From a virus: 64,000 nt of DNA. The DNA is taken from UHGV virus genome UHGV-0072281; one strand, given 5' to 3'. The notes beneath the pieces are model-generated. The model ran no database searches. It had not been told where the DNA came from and worked only from the letters and a program-made list of their open reading frames with translations. The stretch's first letter is position 1; each line of letters begins with the position of its first letter. Made by a program: the position numbers and the translations under genes. This document shows positions 8,921 to 57,521 of the stretch, piece by piece.

Positions 8921-10879
8921 ATGTCTGATTCATTAGACCAACGTCCTGGCAATGGACGCCGTCGTCTACAGACGGAACCTGTACAGGTTCACATCCCTGA
9001 GCTCGACTACAGCACTATGTCAGCGGACGATGGGATTATGGCCATTAAACGTGCCAACCCACAACTGTCCTTTGCAGAAGCTGAAGAAGCGTACAAAGGA
9101 CTGAACGTGGTGAAAGAAGAACCTATTCTTCAACCGCCTACGTTCGAAGAAGAACCCCTTCCTGAATTTCTACAGACCGAACTGACAGGACAACCTGTCA
9201 TTGCTGAAGTTGTAGAGCGTAAAGAAGTGGTCGTTGAAGAACGTAAACCGGAACCTGTCCTGGTAGCGGAAAAAACGCGGGAAGAATATGTTCCACCGGC
9301 TCCTGAACCTCAGGCACCTGCGGCGGATCACGAACCAGAAGCGACGCCCGTAGTAAAAGAGAAAGCTTCTACCGAACGTATCAACTTTGGCGATCAACCT
9401 GTTCATGAAGAGTTCTCGGAATTGGAAGAGGATTCAGAAGCCAGTGTAATGGCAAGCTTCGGCACGCTTATCGGTCTTTGCCAGGACCCGAACCTCGTCG
9501 GAAATGATTTGAAGAAGTTCTTCTCAAGTATTCCGAAAAGCAAAGACGGGCGCATGTTGTTCAAGTCCGAAGAACAGCGCGATTTGTACGAACGTCTGTA
9601 TCGTGCCCTGAACATGTCCCCACCTCGTTTACAGAATAACCTGCAAGCGTTTGATGTGGCCCTGTCACGTGATGACACAGCTTGGGAGCAGCGAGTACAG
9701 TTGCCGGGGATGAATAAACCGGTAGGTCTGATCAGTACCCGTCTCAACCAGCAGACAGGTGCAATTGCAGCCCTGCGTCGTCGTCGTAAATCTGGTATTC
9801 CTAACTGGGTATGGTTACCTGCCACGGGTATCTTCGTCGGCTTCCGTGCACCGTTGGAGCGCGAGATTTGTGACTTCGATATTGAATTGGCGTTAGAAAC
9901 CGCGAAGATTGGGATGCAGACTTATGGTCTGATGCTCTCCGCATCTTCTGGTGTTTACTTAAGCCACATGATCGAATTCGCTTTACGGTTTGTTACCGAT
10001 TGCAGCTTAGACTGCGAAGGTAACGACATGAAGACCGTACTGATGGATACCATCGATATTGCTGACTACTGGTTACTGTTAATCGGCGTTATGCAAGCGA
10101 AGTTCCCAGGTGGTTTACCGTGGACGCTGATTTGTGGCCACGAAGGTTGCGGTCATCAGGAAGACGTTCGTCTGAACCTGGCACGCTGTATCCGTATGGG
10201 GACTTCTCTGTATACGGACATTCAGCGTAATCTGTGGGCACTTCAACGCGGTAAAGACGACGCGACGATCACCCGTGCTGACCAGCGTAAGTTCGTTGAA
10301 GAACACATTAAAGACCCATCAGCGATTTTCGAACAAGACGGTATTATCGTTAAGTTTGGTCGTTCTACCCTGGGTAAATTCTTCGACAACACCGAACGTT
10401 GGATTGAAGAAACTAACGCTGCCACGACCTCTGCGTTGGCAGAGAAGGGCACAGAACGTGAGCGTGAAGACCACTTACGCTTAACCGCTGAAGCTCGTCG
10501 TCTAACCCGTTACGCGCACATGGTTGAATCTATCACCGTTATGGAAGAAATCTACGACGGTGAAGAATCCCACGAAGAACCTATCGTAGAGAAAGATTAC
10601 GATAAGATCGTCCAGATGTTGGAAGAACTGTCGTCCGATCGTAAATACGTGGCTAACTTCGAAGGCGCTATTGCGACGTACAACGACCGTAGCCGTCTGG
10701 CGGTGTTCGGGTATATGGGTCAACGTTGCCCAGCGTGTGGTAAAGCCGATGAAGGCGAGAAAGAAGGCGTGTATCGTGGTATCGTAACGATTTCCCCGGA
10801 CCGCGTTTTTTTCGAGCTATCTCGAGTGGTGTTCGAGATTCAGCGGTTTATGAGGGATCAATTCGGCGTTACTGGCTAG
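8921..10879 (+). CDS. hypothetical protein with acidic Pro/Glu-rich linker and C-terminal Cys pairs
   Basis: 652 aa; GAGG SD; region PEPVLVAEK..PAPEPQAPAADHEPEATP; CPACGK and CGHEGCGH motifs. Confidence 0.8.
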   Translation: MSDSLDQRPGNGRRRLQTEPVQVHIPELDYSTMSADDGIMAIKRANPQLSFAEAEEAYKGLNVVKEEPILQPPTFEEEPLPEFLQTELTGQPVIAEVVERKEVVVEERKPEPVLVAEKTREEYVPPAPEPQAPAADHEPEATPVVKEKASTERINFGDQPVHEEFSELEEDSEASVMASFGTLIGLCQDPNLVGNDLKKFFSSIPKSKDGRMLFKSEEQRDLYERLYRALNMSPPRLQNNLQAFDVALSRDDTAWEQRVQLPGMNKPVGLISTRLNQQTGAIAALRRRRKSGIPNWVWLPATGIFVGFRAPLEREICDFDIELALETAKIGMQTYGLMLSASSGVYLSHMIEFALRFVTDCSLDCEGNDMKTVLMDTIDIADYWLLLIGVMQAKFPGGLPWTLICGHEGCGHQEDVRLNLARCIRMGTSLYTDIQRNLWALQRGKDDATITRADQRKFVEEHIKDPSAIFEQDGIIVKFGRSTLGKFFDNTERWIEETNAATTSALAEKGTEREREDHLRLTAEARRLTRYAHMVESITVMEEIYDGEESHEEPIVEKDYDKIVQMLEELSSDRKYVANFEGAIATYNDRSRLAVFGYMGQRCPACGKADEGEKEGVYRGIVTISPDRVFFELSRVVFEIQRFMRDQFGVTG

Positions 10880-26374: not shown

Positions 26375-26433
26375 GGGGGCCCCTCATTCTAGGGGCGTGT
26401 AATTGGGTTATATAACCAAAGGAAATAAACGAA

Positions 26434-27705
26434 ATGGCAAATTTCGCAAAAACTCGCGCCGCTCGTGAATCGATGGAAGCGGCCGATGAAGTAATCGACG
26501 GTATCAGCAACGTTGAACCGGCAGAAGAGAACCTGGACGTCCAGCTTGCAGACGTAGCCTCTATCGACGGTCAGCTCGAACAGCTGGAAACCGACGGTGA
26601 AACCCTGGCTGCCGATACTGAGCGTACTGAAGACGCTATCGATCAGGCGGAAGAAGCCGTTGCTAACGGTGAAGAAATGCCGGAAGAAGCGGTTGCCCTG
26701 CAAGAAGTGGCTCAGGAATCCATCTCACGTCGTTGGAACCTGGAACGCACCAAACTGGCTCGCGAATCCTATCGCCGTGGCCGTGGCATGACTGCTGCTG
26801 CGCAGGAAGGCTGGAAAGAAACCCTGAAAGGTCTTTACGAGCGTTTCATTCAGTTCTGTAAAGAAGTGATTGCGAAGATCAAAGACCTGAAACTGAAATA
26901 TTTCAACGTCGGTAAGACCGCACAGAAACGTGCGAAGAAATATCAGGAAATGCTGCGCAAGCTGGGCAAACAGAAAAATGATACCATCTCCGGTGGCTTC
27001 ATTACTAAGCTGTCCATTGAAGGTAAATTCGATGCAGCTGGTTCTATCGCTATCGCGAAAGAAGTAACCTCTGGTAAAGCTAAAGGTGCTATTAGCGCAC
27101 TGGAAAAACAAGCTGGTGAAGCTGTTACTGCTGTAACCAAAGGTGACGATGAAGCATTCAAAGCAATGCGTGGCGATCAGCCGGTAGAACTGTTCGGTAA
27201 AGCAGCGTCTAAACTGCATAACCTGCCGAACTTTGAAAACGGCGATGCGTCTAAACTGCTGGCTCTGCCGGGTAACGCATACGTTCAGTCCGGTACTAAA
27301 GAACTGGCTGGCGGTCACAAATTTACCGCTGTTGCATTCATGAGCACTGGCGATGCCTCTGACGATAAAGACGTGAAAACTCCGTCTGTTTCTGAAATGG
27401 CTGGCGCTGCTTCTTCTCTGGAATCTATCGGTAAAGGCTTCGAAGCTGTACTGAAAGACTTCCGTGCTTACGATGCAGAGATTGCAAAACTGCAACAGGC
27501 CGCTGAGAAAGCTGCTAACGCGCTGAACAGCGAAAAAGACGAAAGCAAGTGGGATGGCCTGCGTAATGCTCGCCAAGCTGCTGACCAGTCTGTTAAGAAC
27601 TACCAGACCCTGAACCGTGCCGTTAGTTATGTTGCTAACACCGTAATTAGCGGTTTGAACGGTTACCTGGGCGCTGGTATCGGTGCTTACGAAAAATCTA
27701 AGTAA
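26434..27705 (+). CDS. abundant-looking paralogue A: acidic N-terminal propeptide-like region, coiled-coil middle, conserved C-terminal GAGIGAYEKSK
   Basis: 423 aa; AAAGGAAA SD; visibly enriched for ctg/cgt/ggt/aac/gaa codons; N-term MANFAKTRAARESMEA..; motif ALQEVAQESISRRWN. Confidence 0.9.
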   Translation: MANFAKTRAARESMEAADEVIDGISNVEPAEENLDVQLADVASIDGQLEQLETDGETLAADTERTEDAIDQAEEAVANGEEMPEEAVALQEVAQESISRRWNLERTKLARESYRRGRGMTAAAQEGWKETLKGLYERFIQFCKEVIAKIKDLKLKYFNVGKTAQKRAKKYQEMLRKLGKQKNDTISGGFITKLSIEGKFDAAGSIAIAKEVTSGKAKGAISALEKQAGEAVTAVTKGDDEAFKAMRGDQPVELFGKAASKLHNLPNFENGDASKLLALPGNAYVQSGTKELAGGHKFTAVAFMSTGDASDDKDVKTPSVSEMAGAASSLESIGKGFEAVLKDFRAYDAEIAKLQQAAEKAANALNSEKDESKWDGLRNARQAADQSVKNYQTLNRAVSYVANTVISGLNGYLGAGIGAYEKSK

Positions 27706-27785
27706 TACTTAGGTTTACGGTTCCGAACAGTTCTTGAAATAAATCATCAGGGGAGCGAAACGCTCCCCTTAGAGGAAAGCTTAAA

Positions 27786-29048
27786 ATGGCGAATTTCTAC
27801 AAAAACAAAATTGCTCGTGAGTCAATGGAAGCGAACTCTACTGTCGTTCCAGATGGTATTGAGCTGCCAGCAGAGTCTATCGAAGGTACTCTGGCTGATA
27901 TCGAGCACGACACTAAACCGATCGAAGCGCTGGACGCTGACGCAGAGCTGCTGGCGGAAGACGGCGACGAAACCGATGCGCAGCTGGACGTTCTGGACGA
28001 AGCTCAGGCTTCCGCTGACGGCGAAGGTGGTGAAGATGGCGACGATCAGATGGACGCTGAAGAAGACATGCCGGACGACGCTGCTAAAGCGCTGGATGTT
28101 GCTCAGGAATCCATCCGTTCTCGCTGGAACTTCGAACACCGTTCTTCCGTTGCTCACGAATCTTACGGCGCTCGTAACCGTCGTCAGGTTGCTCGTGAAT
28201 CCCTGTGGGACGACATTAAAGCCTTCCTGAAACGTTTCTGGGAATGGCTGAAAGAGCAAGGCCGCAAACTGAAAGATCGTTGGCTGAAATTCCACAACCA
28301 GGGTAAATCTATCCAGGCTCGTGCGAAGAAATACGACGAAGCTATTCGTAAACTGGGCAAACAGAAGAAAGATGAAATCTCCGGTGGTTTCATCAAGTGC
28401 CTGTCTGTTGACGGTAAGTTCGTTGGTAACGATGTACCACGTCTGAAAGACGCGATGAGCCGTGTTTCTTCTTTCTACAGCAAACACGTTCCAACTCTGC
28501 TGGCTTCTGGTACCGCTCTGGTTGCAGACGTATCCAAAGCTAACGGTGCTCAGGCTGAGCAACTGCGTGCTGAATTTGCTGCGCTTTCTAAAGAAGATGG
28601 CGACAAAGAATTCCGCCTGGGCAACATGGTTATGCAGACCAACTTCGATGAAGATGGTGGCTTTAGCTTCACTCACGTTGAAGCAGAAAATGCTGTTGAA
28701 ACCAGCGTGAAAACTCCGTCTGTAAGCGAACTGGCTAAACTGAACGGTTTCTTCACCGATCTGGGTAAACAGATTGAGAAGAACGTTCTCGAATACCGTA
28801 AGACCGAGCAGGCTCGTGAGAAGTTCGCTCAGTCTATCGAGAAACTGCTGAAAGAAATCGATAACGTCAAGATCGATGAAAAACCAGAACTGACTGAAGG
28901 CGTACGTGTTGCACGTCGCTATGTTAACAGCATTCGCAGCGCAGTATCCCTGTGCGAGAAAGTTGTTGCTTCTGCTCAGAAAAACCTGGTTAGCGGCGTT
29001 AGCGGTTATATCAGCGCCGGTATCGCAGCGTACGAAAAGTCTAAGTAA
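27786..29048 (+). CDS. abundant-looking paralogue B of 26434-27705
   Basis: 420 aa; N-term MANFYKNKIARESMEA.., motif ALDVAQESIRSRWN, C-term SAGIAAYEKSK; same codon bias. Confidence 0.9.
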   Translation: MANFYKNKIARESMEANSTVVPDGIELPAESIEGTLADIEHDTKPIEALDADAELLAEDGDETDAQLDVLDEAQASADGEGGEDGDDQMDAEEDMPDDAAKALDVAQESIRSRWNFEHRSSVAHESYGARNRRQVARESLWDDIKAFLKRFWEWLKEQGRKLKDRWLKFHNQGKSIQARAKKYDEAIRKLGKQKKDEISGGFIKCLSVDGKFVGNDVPRLKDAMSRVSSFYSKHVPTLLASGTALVADVSKANGAQAEQLRAEFAALSKEDGDKEFRLGNMVMQTNFDEDGGFSFTHVEAENAVETSVKTPSVSELAKLNGFFTDLGKQIEKNVLEYRKTEQAREKFAQSIEKLLKEIDNVKIDEKPELTEGVRVARRYVNSIRSAVSLCEKVVASAQKNLVSGVSGYISAGIAAYEKSK

Positions 29049-30452: not shown

Positions 30453-30758
30453 ATGAAACCGAGAGCCGACCGAGTAGACGTAATACATTTTGAAGAGTGT
30501 GAAACCGAGTATCAGGTTAAACGCACTGATTTACGTTTAGTTATTCCTAAGCTAAACGAACCTGAGTGGAACGGCGAGCTGATGGTACCGCTTGCCGAAC
30601 CAATTAAAACGGGGACAGGCGAGATTAATTATCTCCATTTAGAAGCCGCCGGACGCAAAGTAACCGTTTGGCATCTTGCTGACGGTTACAAAACCAGTCA
30701 GCTTACACGTAAAGCATTTATTCGGAAATTAAGAAAGTCGACGGGAGTTGTGAAATGA
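30453..30758 (+). CDS. hypothetical protein
   Basis: 101 aa; AAGGAAGG SD; ATGA overlap with DHFR gene. Confidence 0.7.
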   Translation: MKPRADRVDVIHFEECETEYQVKRTDLRLVIPKLNEPEWNGELMVPLAEPIKTGTGEINYLHLEAAGRKVTVWHLADGYKTSQLTRKAFIRKLRKSTGVVK

Positions 30759-31291
30759 CAGTTACTGTATCTTTGATTGCGGCAGCGGGACTTAATAATG
30801 AAATAGGGAAAGACAATAAACTCCCTTGGCATATTCCCGATGACTTGAAGAACTTCAAAGCACTTACGTCAGGTAAGGTTATTGTGATGGGACGTAAGAC
30901 GTGGGAGTCTTTGGGATGTAAACCTTTACCAAACCGACATCATTTTGTGCTAACAAGAAAGCCTGATGATTTGCCCACAATGAAAGGGGTAATTTATTCT
31001 AAAGGTAAAATGGAAGCGTTTATTGAATTTCTCAAAATAACGATCAAGGAAAAAGATTTTCCCAAGGAAATTTTTATCATCGGGGGCGCAGAAATTTACC
31101 GCCAGGCGTTGCCATATGCGGATAAGATCTATCTGTCGCGCGTAGAAGCTAAAGTTGACGGTGCGGATGCGTTCTTTCCTGAAATCGATCGCGATGAGTT
31201 TAAATTGGTTTATAACTTAACGCACTGCTCGAAACCAGAAAGTGGTATTCCGCGTTGGCATTATCAGATTTGGAAAAGAGATGGGCACTGA
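30755..31291 (+). CDS. dihydrofolate reductase
   Basis: 178 aa; IAAAGLNNEIGKDNKLPWHIPDDLKNFKALTSGKVIVMGRKTWESLG and IIGGAEIYRQALPYADKIYLSRVEAKVDGDAFFPEID closely parallel E. coli FolA. Confidence 0.93.
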   Translation: MTVTVSLIAAAGLNNEIGKDNKLPWHIPDDLKNFKALTSGKVIVMGRKTWESLGCKPLPNRHHFVLTRKPDDLPTMKGVIYSKGKMEAFIEFLKITIKEKDFPKEIFIIGGAEIYRQALPYADKIYLSRVEAKVDGADAFFPEIDRDEFKLVYNLTHCSKPESGIPRWHYQIWKRDGH

Positions 31292-37653: not shown

Positions 37654-38469
37654 ATGATTACTATTAAAGATTATTTTCCGCGTGGGTTGAGCAATGAAAA
37701 CTTCGTTCCAACTGAAGACATTGCCATCGTTGCAGAGTCCAGCGATAAGTCTTTTAAACTCTACTTGAGTACGGCAGCAGGAAAATCCACTCTTATCCTT
37801 CGTGAACCTGAAGTGATAAGCATCTGCTCGTTTGGGGGTGGTGTAGAAGGAACGATTAACTGGTTGAAATCCAGAATGCATCGTTTGCTTATCGTGAATA
37901 CCGATCCTGTGATTCGTTTACAGCAATTGAAATCGTTGAATGAAATTATCGTCGGATTATTGGAACATGAAACGTTTGGTAATGCTGAGATTGCGGAAGC
38001 GATTAAATCTGTAGAACTAATCGAGTGGAGCGATATCGAATACGAACGTGCTGGGTTATTCGCAATGTACGGTGATGATAATCCCGTTGCGTTTGCACAA
38101 ACGTTGGATAATGTTACCGTAACAGCGCGCGTATTGTTTGGTTTACAACGTGTTGAGTTTGAACTGAAACACGTCTACGTGAGCAATAAACCGGAGATGG
38201 TGGAGACATTGATTCGTGCTTTCGCATACCCGTTAGACGGTGAATGGGAACAGCAGATTAATGAAGCGTTAGAAGCCATGCATTTCCTGGCTGAAACGTT
38301 AAGGAAGGATGAGAAATTGAAAGGTCGTGTTTATCCAGAACACGATTTTGTTTGTGAAGAATGTGGAGCACAGTATCAAATCCGTGTTCCTTTAACCGGC
38401 CTAACATTCCCGCAAGCCAACGTGCAATGTAAGGAATGTGGTCATGTTCAATACGTAGCGATTAAATAA
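37654..38469 (+). CDS. hypothetical protein with C-terminal zinc-ribbon-like Cys pairs
   Basis: 271 aa; GGAG SD; C-terminal CEECGAQ...CKECGH. Confidence 0.8.
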   Translation: MITIKDYFPRGLSNENFVPTEDIAIVAESSDKSFKLYLSTAAGKSTLILREPEVISICSFGGGVEGTINWLKSRMHRLLIVNTDPVIRLQQLKSLNEIIVGLLEHETFGNAEIAEAIKSVELIEWSDIEYERAGLFAMYGDDNPVAFAQTLDNVTVTARVLFGLQRVEFELKHVYVSNKPEMVETLIRAFAYPLDGEWEQQINEALEAMHFLAETLRKDEKLKGRVYPEHDFVCEECGAQYQIRVPLTGLTFPQANVQCKECGHVQYVAIK

Positions 38470-38518: not shown

Positions 38519-38541
38519 CGCTCTTAAAAGGAAATTGTGTC

Positions 38542-38697
38542 ATGAGAAATGTTAATGCAATGCTTAACCAGGCATTTGTTAACCAACAGCGTTTTCAGGA
38601 ACGCTTAGCACAACTTAAAACACAACACAGACCACCACAACAAAGAGTGGTTAAGAGCAAGTTCGGCGAAATGGTTTTCGAAAGAAAATCTTTCTAA
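38542..38697 (+). CDS. small basic protein, paralogue 1 of 3 (51 aa)
   Basis: MRNVNAMLNQAFVNQQRFQERLAQLKTQHRPPQQRVVKSKFGEMVFERKSF; AAAAGGAAA SD; not in ORF track (<60 aa). Confidence 0.55.
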   Translation: MRNVNAMLNQAFVNQQRFQERLAQLKTQHRPPQQRVVKSKFGEMVFERKSF

Positions 38698-38704
38698 TAA
38701 CCGT

Positions 38705-38731
38705 TAGGGGTGTGACAGCACCCCTTTTTAC
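38705..38731 (+). terminator. intrinsic terminator
   Basis: Hairpin aggggtg-tgacag-cacccct then ttttt. Confidence 0.7.
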
Positions 38732-38847
38732 GCTTTAACTTTTCCAAAGAGAAGTTAAAGCAGTAAGGACTGTTGGCGCAGTCCTTACTTGTCATCGCTA
38801 TTACAGAAACGTGATAGCACAATTCTAATTTTTAGAGGCGATCAGAA

Positions 38848-39015
38848 ATGTTCGACAGTATTACACAAATTTTTAACACTACCGTAAACAATCACGCTCA
38901 GCAAGCGAAGTTTAATGAACGATTAAGGGAAGTTCAACAATTAGGATTAAATAAAAGATTAAAATCTTCCAATAATCCTCGAGTACAGATCTTCACCGAA
39001 AGGAGAAGTAACTGA
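38848..39015 (+). CDS. small basic protein, paralogue 2 of 3 (55 aa)
   Basis: MFDSITQIFNTTVNNHAQQAKFNERLREVQQLGLNKRLKSSNNPRVQIFTERRSN; shares QLG-NKRLK-S-N---QI-TE-RS with paralogue 3. Confidence 0.6.
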   Translation: MFDSITQIFNTTVNNHAQQAKFNERLREVQQLGLNKRLKSSNNPRVQIFTERRSN

Positions 39016-39023
39016 TAAAAACA

Positions 39024-39053
39024 AGGTGAGCTGTTGGAGCAGCTCACCTTTTA
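39024..39053 (+). terminator. intrinsic terminator
   Basis: Hairpin aggtgagctg-ttggag-cagctcacct then ttt. Confidence 0.65.
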
Positions 39054-39111
39054 CAACGCCATTACGTTTCCGTAATGGATTTCTTTAATCACCCTACAAA
39101 GAGGGCTTACC

Positions 39112-39285
39112 ATGAACAATGGTTACTACTTTACTGACAAAATGCTTGCAGAACAATATGCAGCAAAAACCAATTTACAGCAACGTATCTACGAGTATAG
39201 TCAACTCGGTGCGAATAAACGATTAAAACCATCAACCAACCGTTTCACACAGATAATCACTGAAAAAAGGAGTGAACGCTACTAA
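39112..39285 (+). CDS. small basic protein, paralogue 3 of 3 (57 aa)
   Basis: MNNGYYFTDKMLAEQYAAKTNLQQRIYEYSQLGANKRLKPSTNRFTQIITEKRSERY. Confidence 0.6.
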   Translation: MNNGYYFTDKMLAEQYAAKTNLQQRIYEYSQLGANKRLKPSTNRFTQIITEKRSERY

Positions 39286-48447: not shown

Positions 48448-48491
48448 GTTTGGATTGGGGGTGGAAACATCCCCATTTTTAAGGAGTGCGT

Positions 48492-48740
48492 ATGGCCGCT
48501 TATGTTGATTACAGTAAAGCCAAGATAGAGCTAAACGTAATTGATACCGTAGAGCGTTTAAAGCAACAACTTTCTTTGGAGTTATATCAACTTCGCGTCC
48601 GTATTCACGAGCGTGAACAACTTATTGAGAAACATCCATTATTTATCGACGAGAAGCAGGTAAAACTTATCACTGCGGAGTTAGAAGTTATGGCCGCAGA
48701 GAAACTGTTACTCGAAGAACGCATCGCTGCTATTGGTTAA
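48492..48740 (+). CDS. small coiled-coil protein
   Basis: 82 aa from ATG 48492 (AAGGAG SD 5 nt upstream); followed by terminator. Confidence 0.65.
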   Translation: MAAYVDYSKAKIELNVIDTVERLKQQLSLELYQLRVRIHEREQLIEKHPLFIDEKQVKLITAELEVMAAEKLLLEERIAAIG

Positions 48741-48750
48741 TCATCACACA

Positions 48751-48782
48751 AGGAGAGCCGAAGCTCTCCTCCTTTATTTTTA
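48751..48782 (+). terminator. intrinsic terminator
   Basis: Hairpin aggagagc-cgaa-gctctcct then cctttatttttatt. Confidence 0.75.
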
Positions 48783-48828
48783 TTCCCCAATTTATTATAG
48801 CCGCCCACTATAGTGAGGGAATGAGGAA

Positions 48829-49134
48829 ATGATTAAATATGTTGTTATTAATGTAAACTACGAACGTAGTCCACGTTTTCGCTTCGAATTACCTGAAACC
48901 AATGCAACCATGGAGTTTAATCGCTACTTTTTAGAGCATTCAAACACCAAAGTCAATCGCGGTAGATACTAGCTTATCTACTATAATGCACGTAATGAGT
49001 TACTGAAAGCCGTCAAGAAATCAGGTCAGCAAGAATTGTTAGCGAAACTGATGGCGTTTGATAACGATCCTTTAGCAATAGGAATTATGTTAGACCTTGT
49101 TATCAATAAAGACGAAATAGCGTGGTCCGAATAA
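48829..49134 (+). pseudogene. 101-codon reading frame interrupted by one in-frame TAG (48970-48972): pseudogene or readthrough/suppression candidate
   Basis: ATG 48829 with GAGGGA/AGGAAA SD; 47 codons, TAG, then 53 further sense codons in the same frame ending TAA 49132-49134 just before a terminator. Confidence 0.4.
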
Positions 49135-49190
49135 AAAAGCTACTCCGACCCCAGAAGGGTCGGAGTAGGCTCGAATTATTTTTTTTTTGC
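49134..49190. terminator. bidirectional intrinsic terminator
   Basis: 12-bp stem ctactccgaccc-cagaa-gggtcggagtag flanked by A-run upstream and T10 downstream. Confidence 0.85.
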
Positions 49191-49193
49191 TAT

Positions 49194-51911
49194 TTAGAGA
49201 GTTTCATCGCTGTTGTCATCTGCACCGGTATCCGTCTCGTCCGTGCCTTCAGTTGAAACGTCTTCTTCCGTTGCCGTATCGGTTTCCGTCGTTTCATCGT
49301 CAGTCATGTCCAAGTCTTCATCACCGCCCAGATCGTCACCACCTAAGTCCTCATCGCCTCCTAAGCCGCCGTCATCTTCAGTGCCGCCGCCAAAGTCGCT
49401 GCTACCGCCGAAGTTATTGGCGTCTTCAGGATTCAGATCAGCCGCTTTTGCTAACGTTTCAACTTTCCCTGTTACACGTTTTGCCAACTGAATCAGTGTC
49501 TTAGATGCAGACGCAATTTCGTCAGAGATCATCTTAACGTTTTCACCGCGTTTCTCTTCATCGTAAATCAGGTCGAACATATCGTTCTCAATACCCTGAC
49601 TACGTAACCAGTGGCGCGCGTAGAAGGTCTTAACCATCGTCTTGAGGTCATCAGGTGACATTTCAATACCTTCGTTCTGAAGCATATTAGCAATGTCATC
49701 CGTGACCACCAGATCTGCAAGTTTCTCGATAAATTCATAGCGTTTATCGAAGAGATCAGCTTGAGATGCTGTTGCAGAAGTATCAGGTGGTGGCAAGGTG
49801 ACCTTCATACCGTTGATAAACTTCGCCATATACTCTGACGTTTGTTTTGTCATCTCTTCGCTAGATACATTCGGATTCTGCTCACGGATATACTCAACGA
49901 TAATACGGATGAGTTCTGCTTGCAGTTTCGGTGAAGCTTGCAGACTGTTTGTAACGTAGCGCGTAAGCGGGGTTGAGAGGATTTCCTGTTTCTTCACAAT
50001 CTGTTGAGTAACCAACAGCGATTTAGAATAAATCTGAGAAGCAAACTCCAGGTTCTCCGGGGTAAGTACAAGGTCAGGATCAACACACGCGATGTGACAT
50101 GTACGGCGTAACAGGTTCTCGTCAATTTGTTGATCAGGAACTTTATACTCCGGCGTGGTATCAGACACAGACACTTTGTGGCTGGCGTAGTAATCGTTAC
50201 CCGTTACGTTAAAGGCAATCCCCGCGTTAGCTCCCATTGCCCAAGCATCGTTAATATCCCCCCACATCGGTAAACGACGGTTGTAGGAGTTAAGGATATC
50301 TGATTTGGCTTGGTCGACAGTTTTTTGACCGTTTGCATCGTCCGGTGACAGCTCAATGTCGTACTGCATGTGACGTGCCGAGTTTAGTACAGATGAGTTC
50401 ATTGTCGCAAACAGCAGTGCCATCCTGACGGTGGAGATGATAAAAGAGCGTTCAGTGATAGAAACCCCGATACCATCTTCGTTAAAATCCGTTGCAAAAT
50501 AGCATAGGTTATTAACCGGAATGTAAACCACTTGAGTATGACGTTTTGCGAGATGACGCGCTAACAGAATACGGCCGAATGTTTCGGTAATATTCATGCT
50601 GATTTCTGCGCCACCTAGTGCCTGACTTAATGCGCGAGCAAATTCGTTTTCAGCGATTTCACCGCAACGTGTACTTAAACGGTTGGCGATTTCCGGGGTA
50701 ATGCGAGAAGTGTTCCCTAAGCCCAGATTAGAACGGTTAATGATGCTGTCCGTCATCCCGTCGTTATTCAGGTAGTTCATAAAGTTCGCATCGCCGTACA
50801 GCGAGGAGCGAGCATTGATGAAGTTACCCATGTCATCTACGATGGTCAGATAACCAATAGGGTTACGAACGTCATCGCCAATTACCAGTGGCAGCGTTGA
50901 CTCTGCGGGCAGTAAACGTTCGATGTATTCGATTTTGTTATTCTCATCCATTGAGATAATAGGAATATCACCGTACGTTTGTGTTTTCGGTGTTGACTTA
51001 TACGCCTCGTTTAAATCACCCAAGTTAATGAACCCTTTTTCAGCAGCGTCACGCTGACGGTCATCGAAAGATTGGTTAGGGTCGAACGGACTGCCACCGT
51101 TTGGTGTAGACGGCTTTTCATATGCGGCTTGCTCTAATTGCCCGTACAAACCCGTACGTGCGTTCTCATGCGCGATACGACGATACAAATCCGGCAGCAT
51201 GGTAATGCGCGGGTTATCGGTAATCGTGATTTCCATCTGGAATTTATCCGAGAACATCGAATCGTGCTTACCGAAATCGATTTTCAACGTCTGAGGACCA
51301 GTAACGGCTCCGTGTAAACGGTTGAGAATTGATTCCACACCAACTCGCTGCCCTTCTTTCGGCGCATTAATAGGCCCGAGAATACCAAGCTGTTGTTCGA
51401 AGAACGCCGTTTGGGAACGACGAATAGATTCAGTAGCGACCTTTGTATTCAGACCGAATAATTGGTCGAAGCCGGTATCCGAGATTATCATCACTGGACT
51501 TGCGCCTTTGGTTTTTAACGCATCGTAAATCCACTGATATAATTTCTTAGGTAGCTGACGAATGTTATCGTGATAATCACGGGTCGGTGTCAGTAGCGCG
51601 TTACGCAGATCAATGGGGATGTCCGCGAAGTTGTCGTAAATCAACGTCGTGTTGATTAAGTCTTTTGTTGATAACAGGCTCGAAGTTGCAATAGTAACGA
51701 TTGTTTCGAGTTCAGGTAACGCATCAAAGATACGTTCCGCATTTTTGATAGTACGAATACGTGAACTCGCAATTGCCGTGAGTTCTTGACGTGTTGGCGT
51801 AGAACCACCCTCGCTACGCGTACCGCGTTGTTGCTGAGGTGCTGGGCCCGTAGTTTTACGAAGAATTGCAGCTACGGCGGGGTCGCCCGTTAATTTACTA
51901 ATATCGTCCAT
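49194..51911 (-). CDS. hypothetical large protein with extremely acidic Gly/Asp/Glu/Thr-rich C-terminal tail
   Basis: 905-aa ORF; C-terminal ~75 aa NNFGGSSDFGGGTEDDGGLGGDEDLGGDDLGGDEDLDMTDDETTETDTATEEDVSTEGTDETDTGADDNSDETL. Confidence 0.8.
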   Translation of the reverse strand: MDDISKLTGDPAVAAILRKTTGPAPQQQRGTRSEGGSTPTRQELTAIASSRIRTIKNAERIFDALPELETIVTIATSSLLSTKDLINTTLIYDNFADIPIDLRNALLTPTRDYHDNIRQLPKKLYQWIYDALKTKGASPVMIISDTGFDQLFGLNTKVATESIRRSQTAFFEQQLGILGPINAPKEGQRVGVESILNRLHGAVTGPQTLKIDFGKHDSMFSDKFQMEITITDNPRITMLPDLYRRIAHENARTGLYGQLEQAAYEKPSTPNGGSPFDPNQSFDDRQRDAAEKGFINLGDLNEAYKSTPKTQTYGDIPIISMDENNKIEYIERLLPAESTLPLVIGDDVRNPIGYLTIVDDMGNFINARSSLYGDANFMNYLNNDGMTDSIINRSNLGLGNTSRITPEIANRLSTRCGEIAENEFARALSQALGGAEISMNITETFGRILLARHLAKRHTQVVYIPVNNLCYFATDFNEDGIGVSITERSFIISTVRMALLFATMNSSVLNSARHMQYDIELSPDDANGQKTVDQAKSDILNSYNRRLPMWGDINDAWAMGANAGIAFNVTGNDYYASHKVSVSDTTPEYKVPDQQIDENLLRRTCHIACVDPDLVLTPENLEFASQIYSKSLLVTQQIVKKQEILSTPLTRYVTNSLQASPKLQAELIRIIVEYIREQNPNVSSEEMTKQTSEYMAKFINGMKVTLPPPDTSATASQADLFDKRYEFIEKLADLVVTDDIANMLQNEGIEMSPDDLKTMVKTFYARHWLRSQGIENDMFDLIYDEEKRGENVKMISDEIASASKTLIQLAKRVTGKVETLAKAADLNPEDANNFGGSSDFGGGTEDDGGLGGDEDLGGDDLGGDEDLDMTDDETTETDTATEEDVSTEGTDETDTGADDNSDETL

Positions 51912-56834: not shown

Positions 56835-57521
56835 ATGAAGGAATTGCAATTAAGAAAGCGTACTACTCTTATCCCCCTTAAGGAACTAAAACAGTGTCCC
56901 GTTTTCTACTCACCGAAAGATCACCTAGATTTATCTAAAGAGAAAAAGATTATTATTTCTGCCTTCCGAGAAGTAATCAATCTTCGTTATTTCGCGGCAC
57001 CAATGGATTGTGCTATCGAACATGCTATGTTGGATGGAAGAACGTCGCTTACAGTTTACGATTTGTTAGAAGAAAAGAATATCGGTATTGAAACTGGTAT
57101 ACTGAGAGTAAACAAAAATGAGTTATTAGAAAGTCAAAAACAACTAATGACAGGTGTTCAATTACTCTTAGAGCAATATGGCTTCTATTCGGAAAAACCA
57201 ACTTCTGCGGTATCTACACAACCCATCATCTGTGACCATGGGTTTGAGGTAGAATGGAAAACAATTCGAGGGCAAGATTTTATTTTAATACATTGGTTCG
57301 TTCCCTATCTTTGGAAAGAGCGTACCACAGTTTATGCTTTACTTGAATTCGCTGTCTACTGGAGCATTTATAAAAAAGAACGTGCTACTGCAATGAAAAC
57401 GGTAATGACCACACCGTTAAATCAACTTTTTACCTCTGGGTTAGAAACAGATTTTAACGAACTATGTACAACTATTTTCAAGATGGAGTATGGCTATGCA
57501 CCAGTTGGATATAACCGCTGA
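56835..57521 (+). CDS. hypothetical protein (AT-rich codon usage)
   Basis: 228 aa; GAGGAG SD. Confidence 0.75.
   Translation: MKELQLRKRTTLIPLKELKQCPVFYSPKDHLDLSKEKKIIISAFREVINLRYFAAPMDCAIEHAMLDGRTSLTVYDLLEEKNIGIETGILRVNKNELLESQKQLMTGVQLLLEQYGFYSEKPTSAVSTQPIICDHGFEVEWKTIRGQDFILIHWFVPYLWKERTTVYALLEFAVYWSIYKKERATAMKTVMTTPLNQLFTSGLETDFNELCTTIFKMEYGYAPVGYNR

Follow-up and report, generated by a model that had tools for sequence, protein, structure and literature searches.

Some gut phages, among them crAss-like and Lak phages, reassign the TAG stop codon (genetic code 15 type), so that an in-frame TAG is found within conserved genes. In programmed readthrough, for example of the Qβ A1 protein, a conserved stop separates a complete protein from an extension domain. 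Amber codons have also been introduced into phage genes in the laboratory. A hydroxylamine amber screen of SPN3US hit 26 genes, with 78 and 82 among them, at a total of 31 amber sites (PMC5105663 Table 1), and six of the 31 ambers are located at Trp codons (PMC5105663). Gene 80 is absent from these conditional-lethal sites, in a screen that was not saturating (PMC5105663 Table 1), and gp81 is the portal protein (PMC5105663).

The SPN3US protein gp80 (SPN3US_0080, AEP83913.1) is encoded between gp79 and the convergent gp81. Neither gp80 nor gp79 was mentioned in the open-access SPN3US literature searched; a paper on a "gp80" concerns an unrelated phiKZ virion RNA polymerase subunit and was rejected. 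Here we describe a gp80-like gene that is interrupted by a single in-frame amber codon in a 64,000-nucleotide stretch, designated the window, of the virus genome UHGV-0072281. The source is an uncultivated SPN3US-like jumbo phage of Enterobacteriaceae, with a genome of ~226 kb, from an infant-gut metagenome.

Results

The gp80-like gene opens with an ATG at 48829-31, which is followed by 47 sense codons and the amber TAG; the same frame then continues through 53 further sense codons to a TAA (Table 1). The Shine-Dalgarno sequence is the conserved TGAGG at 48814-18, 10 nt ahead of the ATG, and GAGGA at 48823-27 was rejected for this role as too near the start codon. An initial annotation of the window had given the same codon layout, and re-reading of the sequence bore this out. 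The terminator that it had placed right after the TAA was found as well, with a 13-bp G+C-rich stem that begins 5 nt past the TAA, and its statement that the downstream half lacks a start of its own held: the first in-frame candidates 3' of the TAG are TTG 49036 and ATG 49051, and both lack a Shine-Dalgarno sequence. Reinitiation 3' of the TAG was rejected on the same ground. Codons 1-47 are expected to be the only part of the gene that is translated, and codons 49-101 are now untranslated. The bare pattern is statistically unremarkable, as 66 stops in the window are flanked on both sides by at least 45 open codons. The interrupted gene is nevertheless real, as both halves are homologous to one protein family.

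Table 1 Features of the interrupted gp80-like locus and its surroundings (window coordinates).
Feature	Position	Strand	Description
Upstream small gene, 84 aa, intact	48486..48740	+	ORF, synteny; at SPN3US gp79 position
Terminator-like hairpin and T-run	48751..48780	+	Between upstream gene and interrupted gene
Leader motif TATTATAG-N10-CTATAGTGAGG	48793..48818	+	Directly upstream of gp80-like gene
gp80-like gene, codons 1-47	48829..48969	+	ORF; aligns with homologue residues 1-47
Premature amber TAG	48970..48972	+	TGG (Trp48) in relatives; mutated base A 48971
Codons 49-101, C-terminal half	48973..49131	+	Identical to family consensus; holds DPLAIGIMLD
Original gene stop TAA	49132..49134	+	P0001-type homologues stop at same codon
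Bidirectional intrinsic terminator	49140..49168	.	13-bp stem, 8 G-C pairs, A-run before, T-run after
Convergent portal-like gene, 905 aa, intact	49194..51911	-	72% identical to SPN3US gp81

The genes on either side are closely similar to their orthologues in the relative NZ_CP173450.1, with 95% identity for the 84-aa upstream protein and 98% for the 905-aa portal-like protein. The hairpin that follows the upstream gene (48751-48770) has an 8-bp stem with 5 G-C pairs and leads into a T-rich tail. The leader motif occurs once in the window, compared to 0 expected copies, and is kept in SPN3US, pEa_SNUABM_29 and phiEaH2, whose proteins are only ~50% identical. The region is predicted to fold as an AT-rich hairpin abutting the Shine-Dalgarno sequence, and this hairpin scores weakly better than shuffled sequence. 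The motif could function as a promoter, operator or 5'-UTR element specific to this gene. The terminator downstream of the TAA is conserved at orthologous loci, is common to the gp80-like gene and the convergent portal-like gene, and can act bidirectionally. No polar effect on the neighbours is expected, because the gp80-like gene forms its own short transcription unit with this bidirectional terminator.

A tblastn search with the joined translation of both halves identified an unbroken ORF of 98-103 aa in each of 56 phage records, including Seoulvirus (SPN3US and relatives), Erskinevirus, Machinavirus and others, with E values down to ~1e-23 and both halves covered. Over its full length SPN3US gp80 shares 50-51% identity with the joined window protein. 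The gene order is the same in the two phages, and the place beside the convergent portal gene is conserved, as expected of a family member. Megablast of the locus against GenBank phages gave no match; the relatives were found by distant blastn and tblastn alone. The protein P0001, identical to the window protein except for W48 and L90H, matched phrog_10389 with E=1e-30 over profile positions 1-95 of 101, and SPN3US gp80 matched the same profile with E=3.5e-52. Judged by these profile matches, the gp80-like gene belongs to phrog_10389, a family whose function is unknown in any phage. Searches of Pfam, NCBIfam and PADLOC and a PDB sequence profile search with the gp80-like protein gave no match. 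A 90% cluster that joins the 47-aa product with two 583-aa proteins was dismissed as a clustering artefact, since the latter are unrelated oxidoreductase-like sequences.

A portal-like neighbour of at least 60% identity was present in 53 phage records, compared to the 56 that carry the small gene, and the gp80-like gene is therefore kept in essentially every SPN3US-like jumbo phage. Among intact relatives, codons 1-47 gave a pN/pS of 0.12 and codons 49-99 one of 0.17, which indicates purifying selection on both halves. The constraint on codons 49-99 further indicates that the downstream half is genuine coding sequence in the family.

The position of the amber codon was examined in DNA and protein alignments. 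TGG occupied the TAG column in all four cultured phages aligned at the DNA level, and Trp was present at position 48 in 22 of 22 database homologues. These homologues include P0001, a 101-aa protein of 99% identity carried on more than 30 contigs. Two complete circular relatives of ~97% identity, the E. coli 98232 "plasmid" NZ_CP173450.1 (221,873 bp) and the Enterobacter ludwigii "plasmid" NZ_CP134650.1 (222,441 bp), have TGG within an intact 99-aa ORF. Exact-pattern scans for the locus gave no match in IMG/VR and two in JGI metagenome contigs, both with TGG and both from another lineage. When the window was compared with five intact DNA relatives, A 48971 was the sole window-private nucleotide in the gene. 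As read from these alignments, the lesion is a single G-to-A transition at 48971 that turned the invariant Trp48 codon from TGG into TAG. In keeping with a nonsense mutation, both sides of the stop are homologous to one protein, and the stop is one nucleotide away from a sense codon.

No private change was found in codons 49-101. The decay expected downstream of a stop was thus not seen, in a stretch of 53 codons that has little power to reveal it. The lack of private changes past the TAG points to a recent mutation; absence of decay suits a very recent event, but it would suit continued translation equally.

The AlphaFold model of the gp80-like protein (pLDDT 84, pTM 0.77) forms one compact α/β domain that spans residues 2-89, and residue 48 falls within the β-strand formed by residues 46-50. 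In the predicted fold, the 47-residue product keeps strands 1 and 2, one helix and a short strand 3; β-strands 4 and 5 and two out of three helices are lost. The most conserved segment of the family, DPLAIGIMLD, is also missing from it. Because the stop cuts into a β-strand of the one compact domain, the model indicates that the 47-aa product is almost certainly inactive and that the TAG allele is most likely null.

The exact 47-aa product was found on seven contigs, and 244-bp snippets of all seven were identical to the window. These contigs are Logan ERR525924; ERZ918521 ("ERR525924.PRJEB6456 ... human gut metagenome"); ERZ1742059 NODE_29_length_200848_cov_23.7383, the name of which records ~24x coverage; ERZ27239574; ERZ28570145 BAEC15-1_SAMEA2580141_METAG-scaffold_25 (226,156 bp); and two JGI contigs, 3300045988 and 3300014543. 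The coordinates of the window match those of the 200,848-bp contigs. Two other proteins of this genome are likewise carried by exactly seven contigs of the same size distribution, which indicates that the seven represent all public assemblies of the strain and that all of them have TAG. They are not independent samples, as most or all derive from one infant-gut run (ERR525924); we take PRJEB6456 to be the infant-gut cohort of Bäckhed et al. 2015. An assembly error behind the TAG is very unlikely, because several assemblers agree and coverage is ~24x. Gene calls on the seven contigs and the public record DAY64696.1 present the 47-aa fragment as an ordinary hypothetical protein.

Stop codons elsewhere in the window were compared by tblastn of 64 ORFs from the window-syntenic segment of NZ_CP173450.1 against the window. 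Among annotated genes, an in-frame stop was present in the gp80 homologue alone, and frameshifts were found in none; the other ORF flagged, a 51-aa frame of 63% identity, is unannotated. TAG terminates at least five genes at the matching place in the window and in this relative. The genes that stop at 10879, 56165, 58854 and 62558 all end in TAG, as do their orthologues, at the same place. The window therefore has neither the multiple in-frame TAGs across genes that stop reassignment would leave nor a loss of TAG as a terminator. Programmed readthrough is without support, because the stop is conserved in no relative and interrupts a β-strand within a single domain; the part upstream of it is not a complete protein.

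ARAGORN identified no tRNA in the 64-kb window or in the strain's own flanks (10 kb upstream on the 226-kb scaffold and 7.5 kb downstream on a JGI contig), and a CUA-anticodon tRNA was not found in the 81 kb scanned of the strain's ~226-kb genome. The complete 97% relative NZ_CP173450.1 has tRNA-Ile as its sole tRNA, according to both PGAP and ARAGORN. This tRNA lies within 150822-153492 of NZ_CP173450.1 (locus L030 1420-4092) and was read by ARAGORN with the unusual anticodon AAT; near it, past an adjacent 166-aa gene, are ~2 kb without annotated CDS. Rfam at gathering thresholds gave no element in the window, and weak matches near the gene correspond to the terminator hairpins.

Several other segments of the window differ in their similarity to relatives. 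A block of ~600 bp at ~48773-49370, comprising the gp80-like gene and its terminator, shares 92-100% identity with the P0001 lineage (98-100% within the gene itself), as against ~80% in the flanks of the block. The closest relatives genome-wide (97%) fall to ~94% identity within it, and the block looks like a short recombination tract. The 228-aa gene at 56835-57521 (+) is ~31% identical to its positional counterpart in the 97%-identical relative and, judged by this low identity amid an otherwise 97%-identical genome, is a swapped or hypervariable cassette. Also unusually divergent from the relative are 37654-38466 (72% identity) and a DHFR-like gene at 30755-31288 (83% identity). Region 38520-39270, beside a DnaB-like helicase gene, contains short ORFs only and gave no blastn alignment to the 97% relative; on this comparison it is an indel or replacement region. 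Two adjacent genes of ~430 aa at 26416-27705 and 27738-29048 (both +) cross-match in tblastn with ~35% mutual identity, which suggests that they are tandem paralogues.

Relatives of the window occur as circular "plasmids" or contigs of ~222-227 kb in many isolate assemblies of E. coli, Enterobacter, Salmonella and Shigella. This occurrence in "plasmid" and isolate assemblies suggests a carrier or episomal state. The jumbo-phage group to which the window belongs is widespread and apparently uncultivated, is without a close GenBank phage match, and is also found in human gut metagenomes; one of its protein clusters has 400 members.

Discussion

The interrupted gp80-like gene is, in our assessment, very likely a natural, recent loss-of-function allele of a conserved single-domain gene, caused by a single G-to-A change. 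The substitution at 48971 converted the TGG codon for Trp48 to TAG, and under the standard bacterial code release factor 1 terminates translation at codon 48. The truncated 47-residue product would be inactive, and the phage would tolerate loss of the gene, at least temporarily or as an episome in its host. For a conserved gene under purifying selection, it is somewhat unexpected that the consensus in an abundant natural population should be a null allele; a carrier state could let a mildly deleterious TAG allele persist.

The recent nonsense pseudogene was one of the options offered in the initial annotation, and it is strongly supported by the orthologue comparison that the annotation had called for: the TAG position is a sense codon, TGG (Trp), throughout, one private G-to-A change accounts for the stop, and all orthologues are single uninterrupted genes, with neither a pair of genes nor a deletion among them. 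A reading in which two separate small genes, or a gene and a non-coding downstream half, share one open frame by coincidence could appeal to how common stops between long open stretches are in the window. It is hardly credible and already refuted by the alignments, in which each orthologue forms a single unbroken ORF that matches the two halves over their whole length; moreover, no start codon backed by a Shine-Dalgarno sequence precedes the downstream half, and a single compact predicted fold covers both. The TAG might instead be an artefact or a non-representative call, arising from a systematic error or from a variant picked out of a mixed population with TGG. One run, sample and project (ERR525924, SAMEA2580141, PRJEB6456) is indicated by the names of at least five contigs, and the seven assemblies are thus not independent; with a ~600-bp block 98-100% identical to an otherwise ~80%-identical lineage, two related phages could coexist. 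Against this, the 244 bp were identical across assemblers and k-mers (k119, k127, NODE-style, scaffold, two JGI and Logan) at ~24x coverage, and both candidate parental lineages have TGG, so that chimerism would be unable to create TAG. The other genes among the 64 compared contain no stop or frameshift, which argues that the assembly is not error-prone. We consider this explanation very doubtful, and the sequencing error allowed for in the initial annotation is likewise unlikely in view of seven identical assemblies from different pipelines, even if they came from one read set.

Also improbable is readthrough of the amber codon at a frequency that would give a functional full-length protein, whether by leakiness of UAG-C, a host suppressor or a phage suppressor tRNA encoded beyond the 81 kb scanned, in which case the gp80-like gene would still be active at a lower level. 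Such translation would agree with the zero private substitutions in the 53 codons past the stop and with the ~24x coverage of a phage that carries the TAG allele in a gene conserved across the clade. The stop is followed by C, reported by Poole et al. 1995 to be a comparatively weak termination context in E. coli, and the tRNA scan covered 81 kb of the strain's 226-kb genome. The missing decay, however, is expected anyway for so recent a change, and the absence of the stop from every relative leaves nothing programmed or conserved. Conserved genes elsewhere truly terminate at TAG, no Rfam recoding element was found, and the tRNA searches gave none in the 81 kb and only tRNA-Ile in the complete ~97% relative. 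Trp48 is, in addition, an invariant residue of a core β-strand, where the usual near-cognate Gln or Tyr may not restore function. The programmed readthrough or amber suppression raised in the initial annotation accordingly finds no support, given an unconserved, mid-domain stop, normal use of TAG as a terminator, no other interrupted gene, and no CUA-anticodon tRNA in the window, its flanks or the complete relative. Loss of the gp80-like protein could, alternatively, have been selected, for example if a host defence senses the protein or if the gene is costly in an episome. The TAG allele is the consensus in an abundant population, a carrier state is suggested by the circular ~222-kb "plasmids" of E. 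coli and Enterobacter and by the Salmonella and Shigella contigs, and the position of SPN3US gene 80 outside the 31 amber sites fits dispensability, within a screen that was not saturating (PMC5105663). Yet the allele was seen once, with no second knock-out among 22 homologue clusters and ~60 phage records, neither PADLOC nor any other annotation match hints at a trigger role, and the data are accounted for just as well if a mildly deleterious allele rose by drift or hitch-hiking. An adaptive knock-out is for these reasons unlikely, although adaptive knock-out and leaky suppression jointly hold perhaps a small but appreciable share of the probability.

That the amber allele is maintained, through an advantageous knock-out (defence escape or episomal carriage) or through low-level UAG readthrough, is not what we would expect; if true, the allele would correspond in nature to the amber mutants made in the laboratory and give a first clue to the role of the family. 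As a recent loss-of-function allele, the TAG variant hints that, in certain natural settings, the phage may do without the gp80-like protein, which is conserved across the clade and encoded beside the portal gene. The 47-aa "gene" in public records (e.g. DAY64696.1) is only the truncated first part of a 101-aa gene and should carry a pseudogene label.

The window copy and SPN3US gp80 are alike in length, gene neighbourhood, leader motif and terminator, whereas the SPN3US gene is uninterrupted and the window copy is broken at codon 48. Classical amber mutants, such as those of the hydroxylamine SPN3US collection, share the lesion, a TGG-to-TAG change with a truncated product (PMC5105663). Those, however, are laboratory mutants, while the window allele is spontaneous and belongs to a natural infant-gut population, and the window phage, unlike the laboratory ambers, shows no sign of propagation on a suppressor host. 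The idea that the window is itself a laboratory SPN3US amber mutant was rejected, as there was no megablast match, gp80 is 51% identical and the source is a human gut metagenome. With the TAG-recoded gut phages, the window shares its gut phage origin and an in-frame TAG in a conserved gene. Unlike them, it has a single TAG in one of ~60 genes, at a codon aligned with Trp instead of Gln; other genes still terminate in TAG, and a suppressor tRNA was not found in the 81 kb scanned. The TAG within the gp80-like gene is no indication of the stop-codon recoding known from other gut phages. Readthrough of the Qβ A1 type likewise involves a stop followed by an open frame in the same phase, but the stop in the window is unique to one strain and halves one domain. 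The change is a textbook TGG-to-TAG nonsense mutation and an ordinary recent natural allele.
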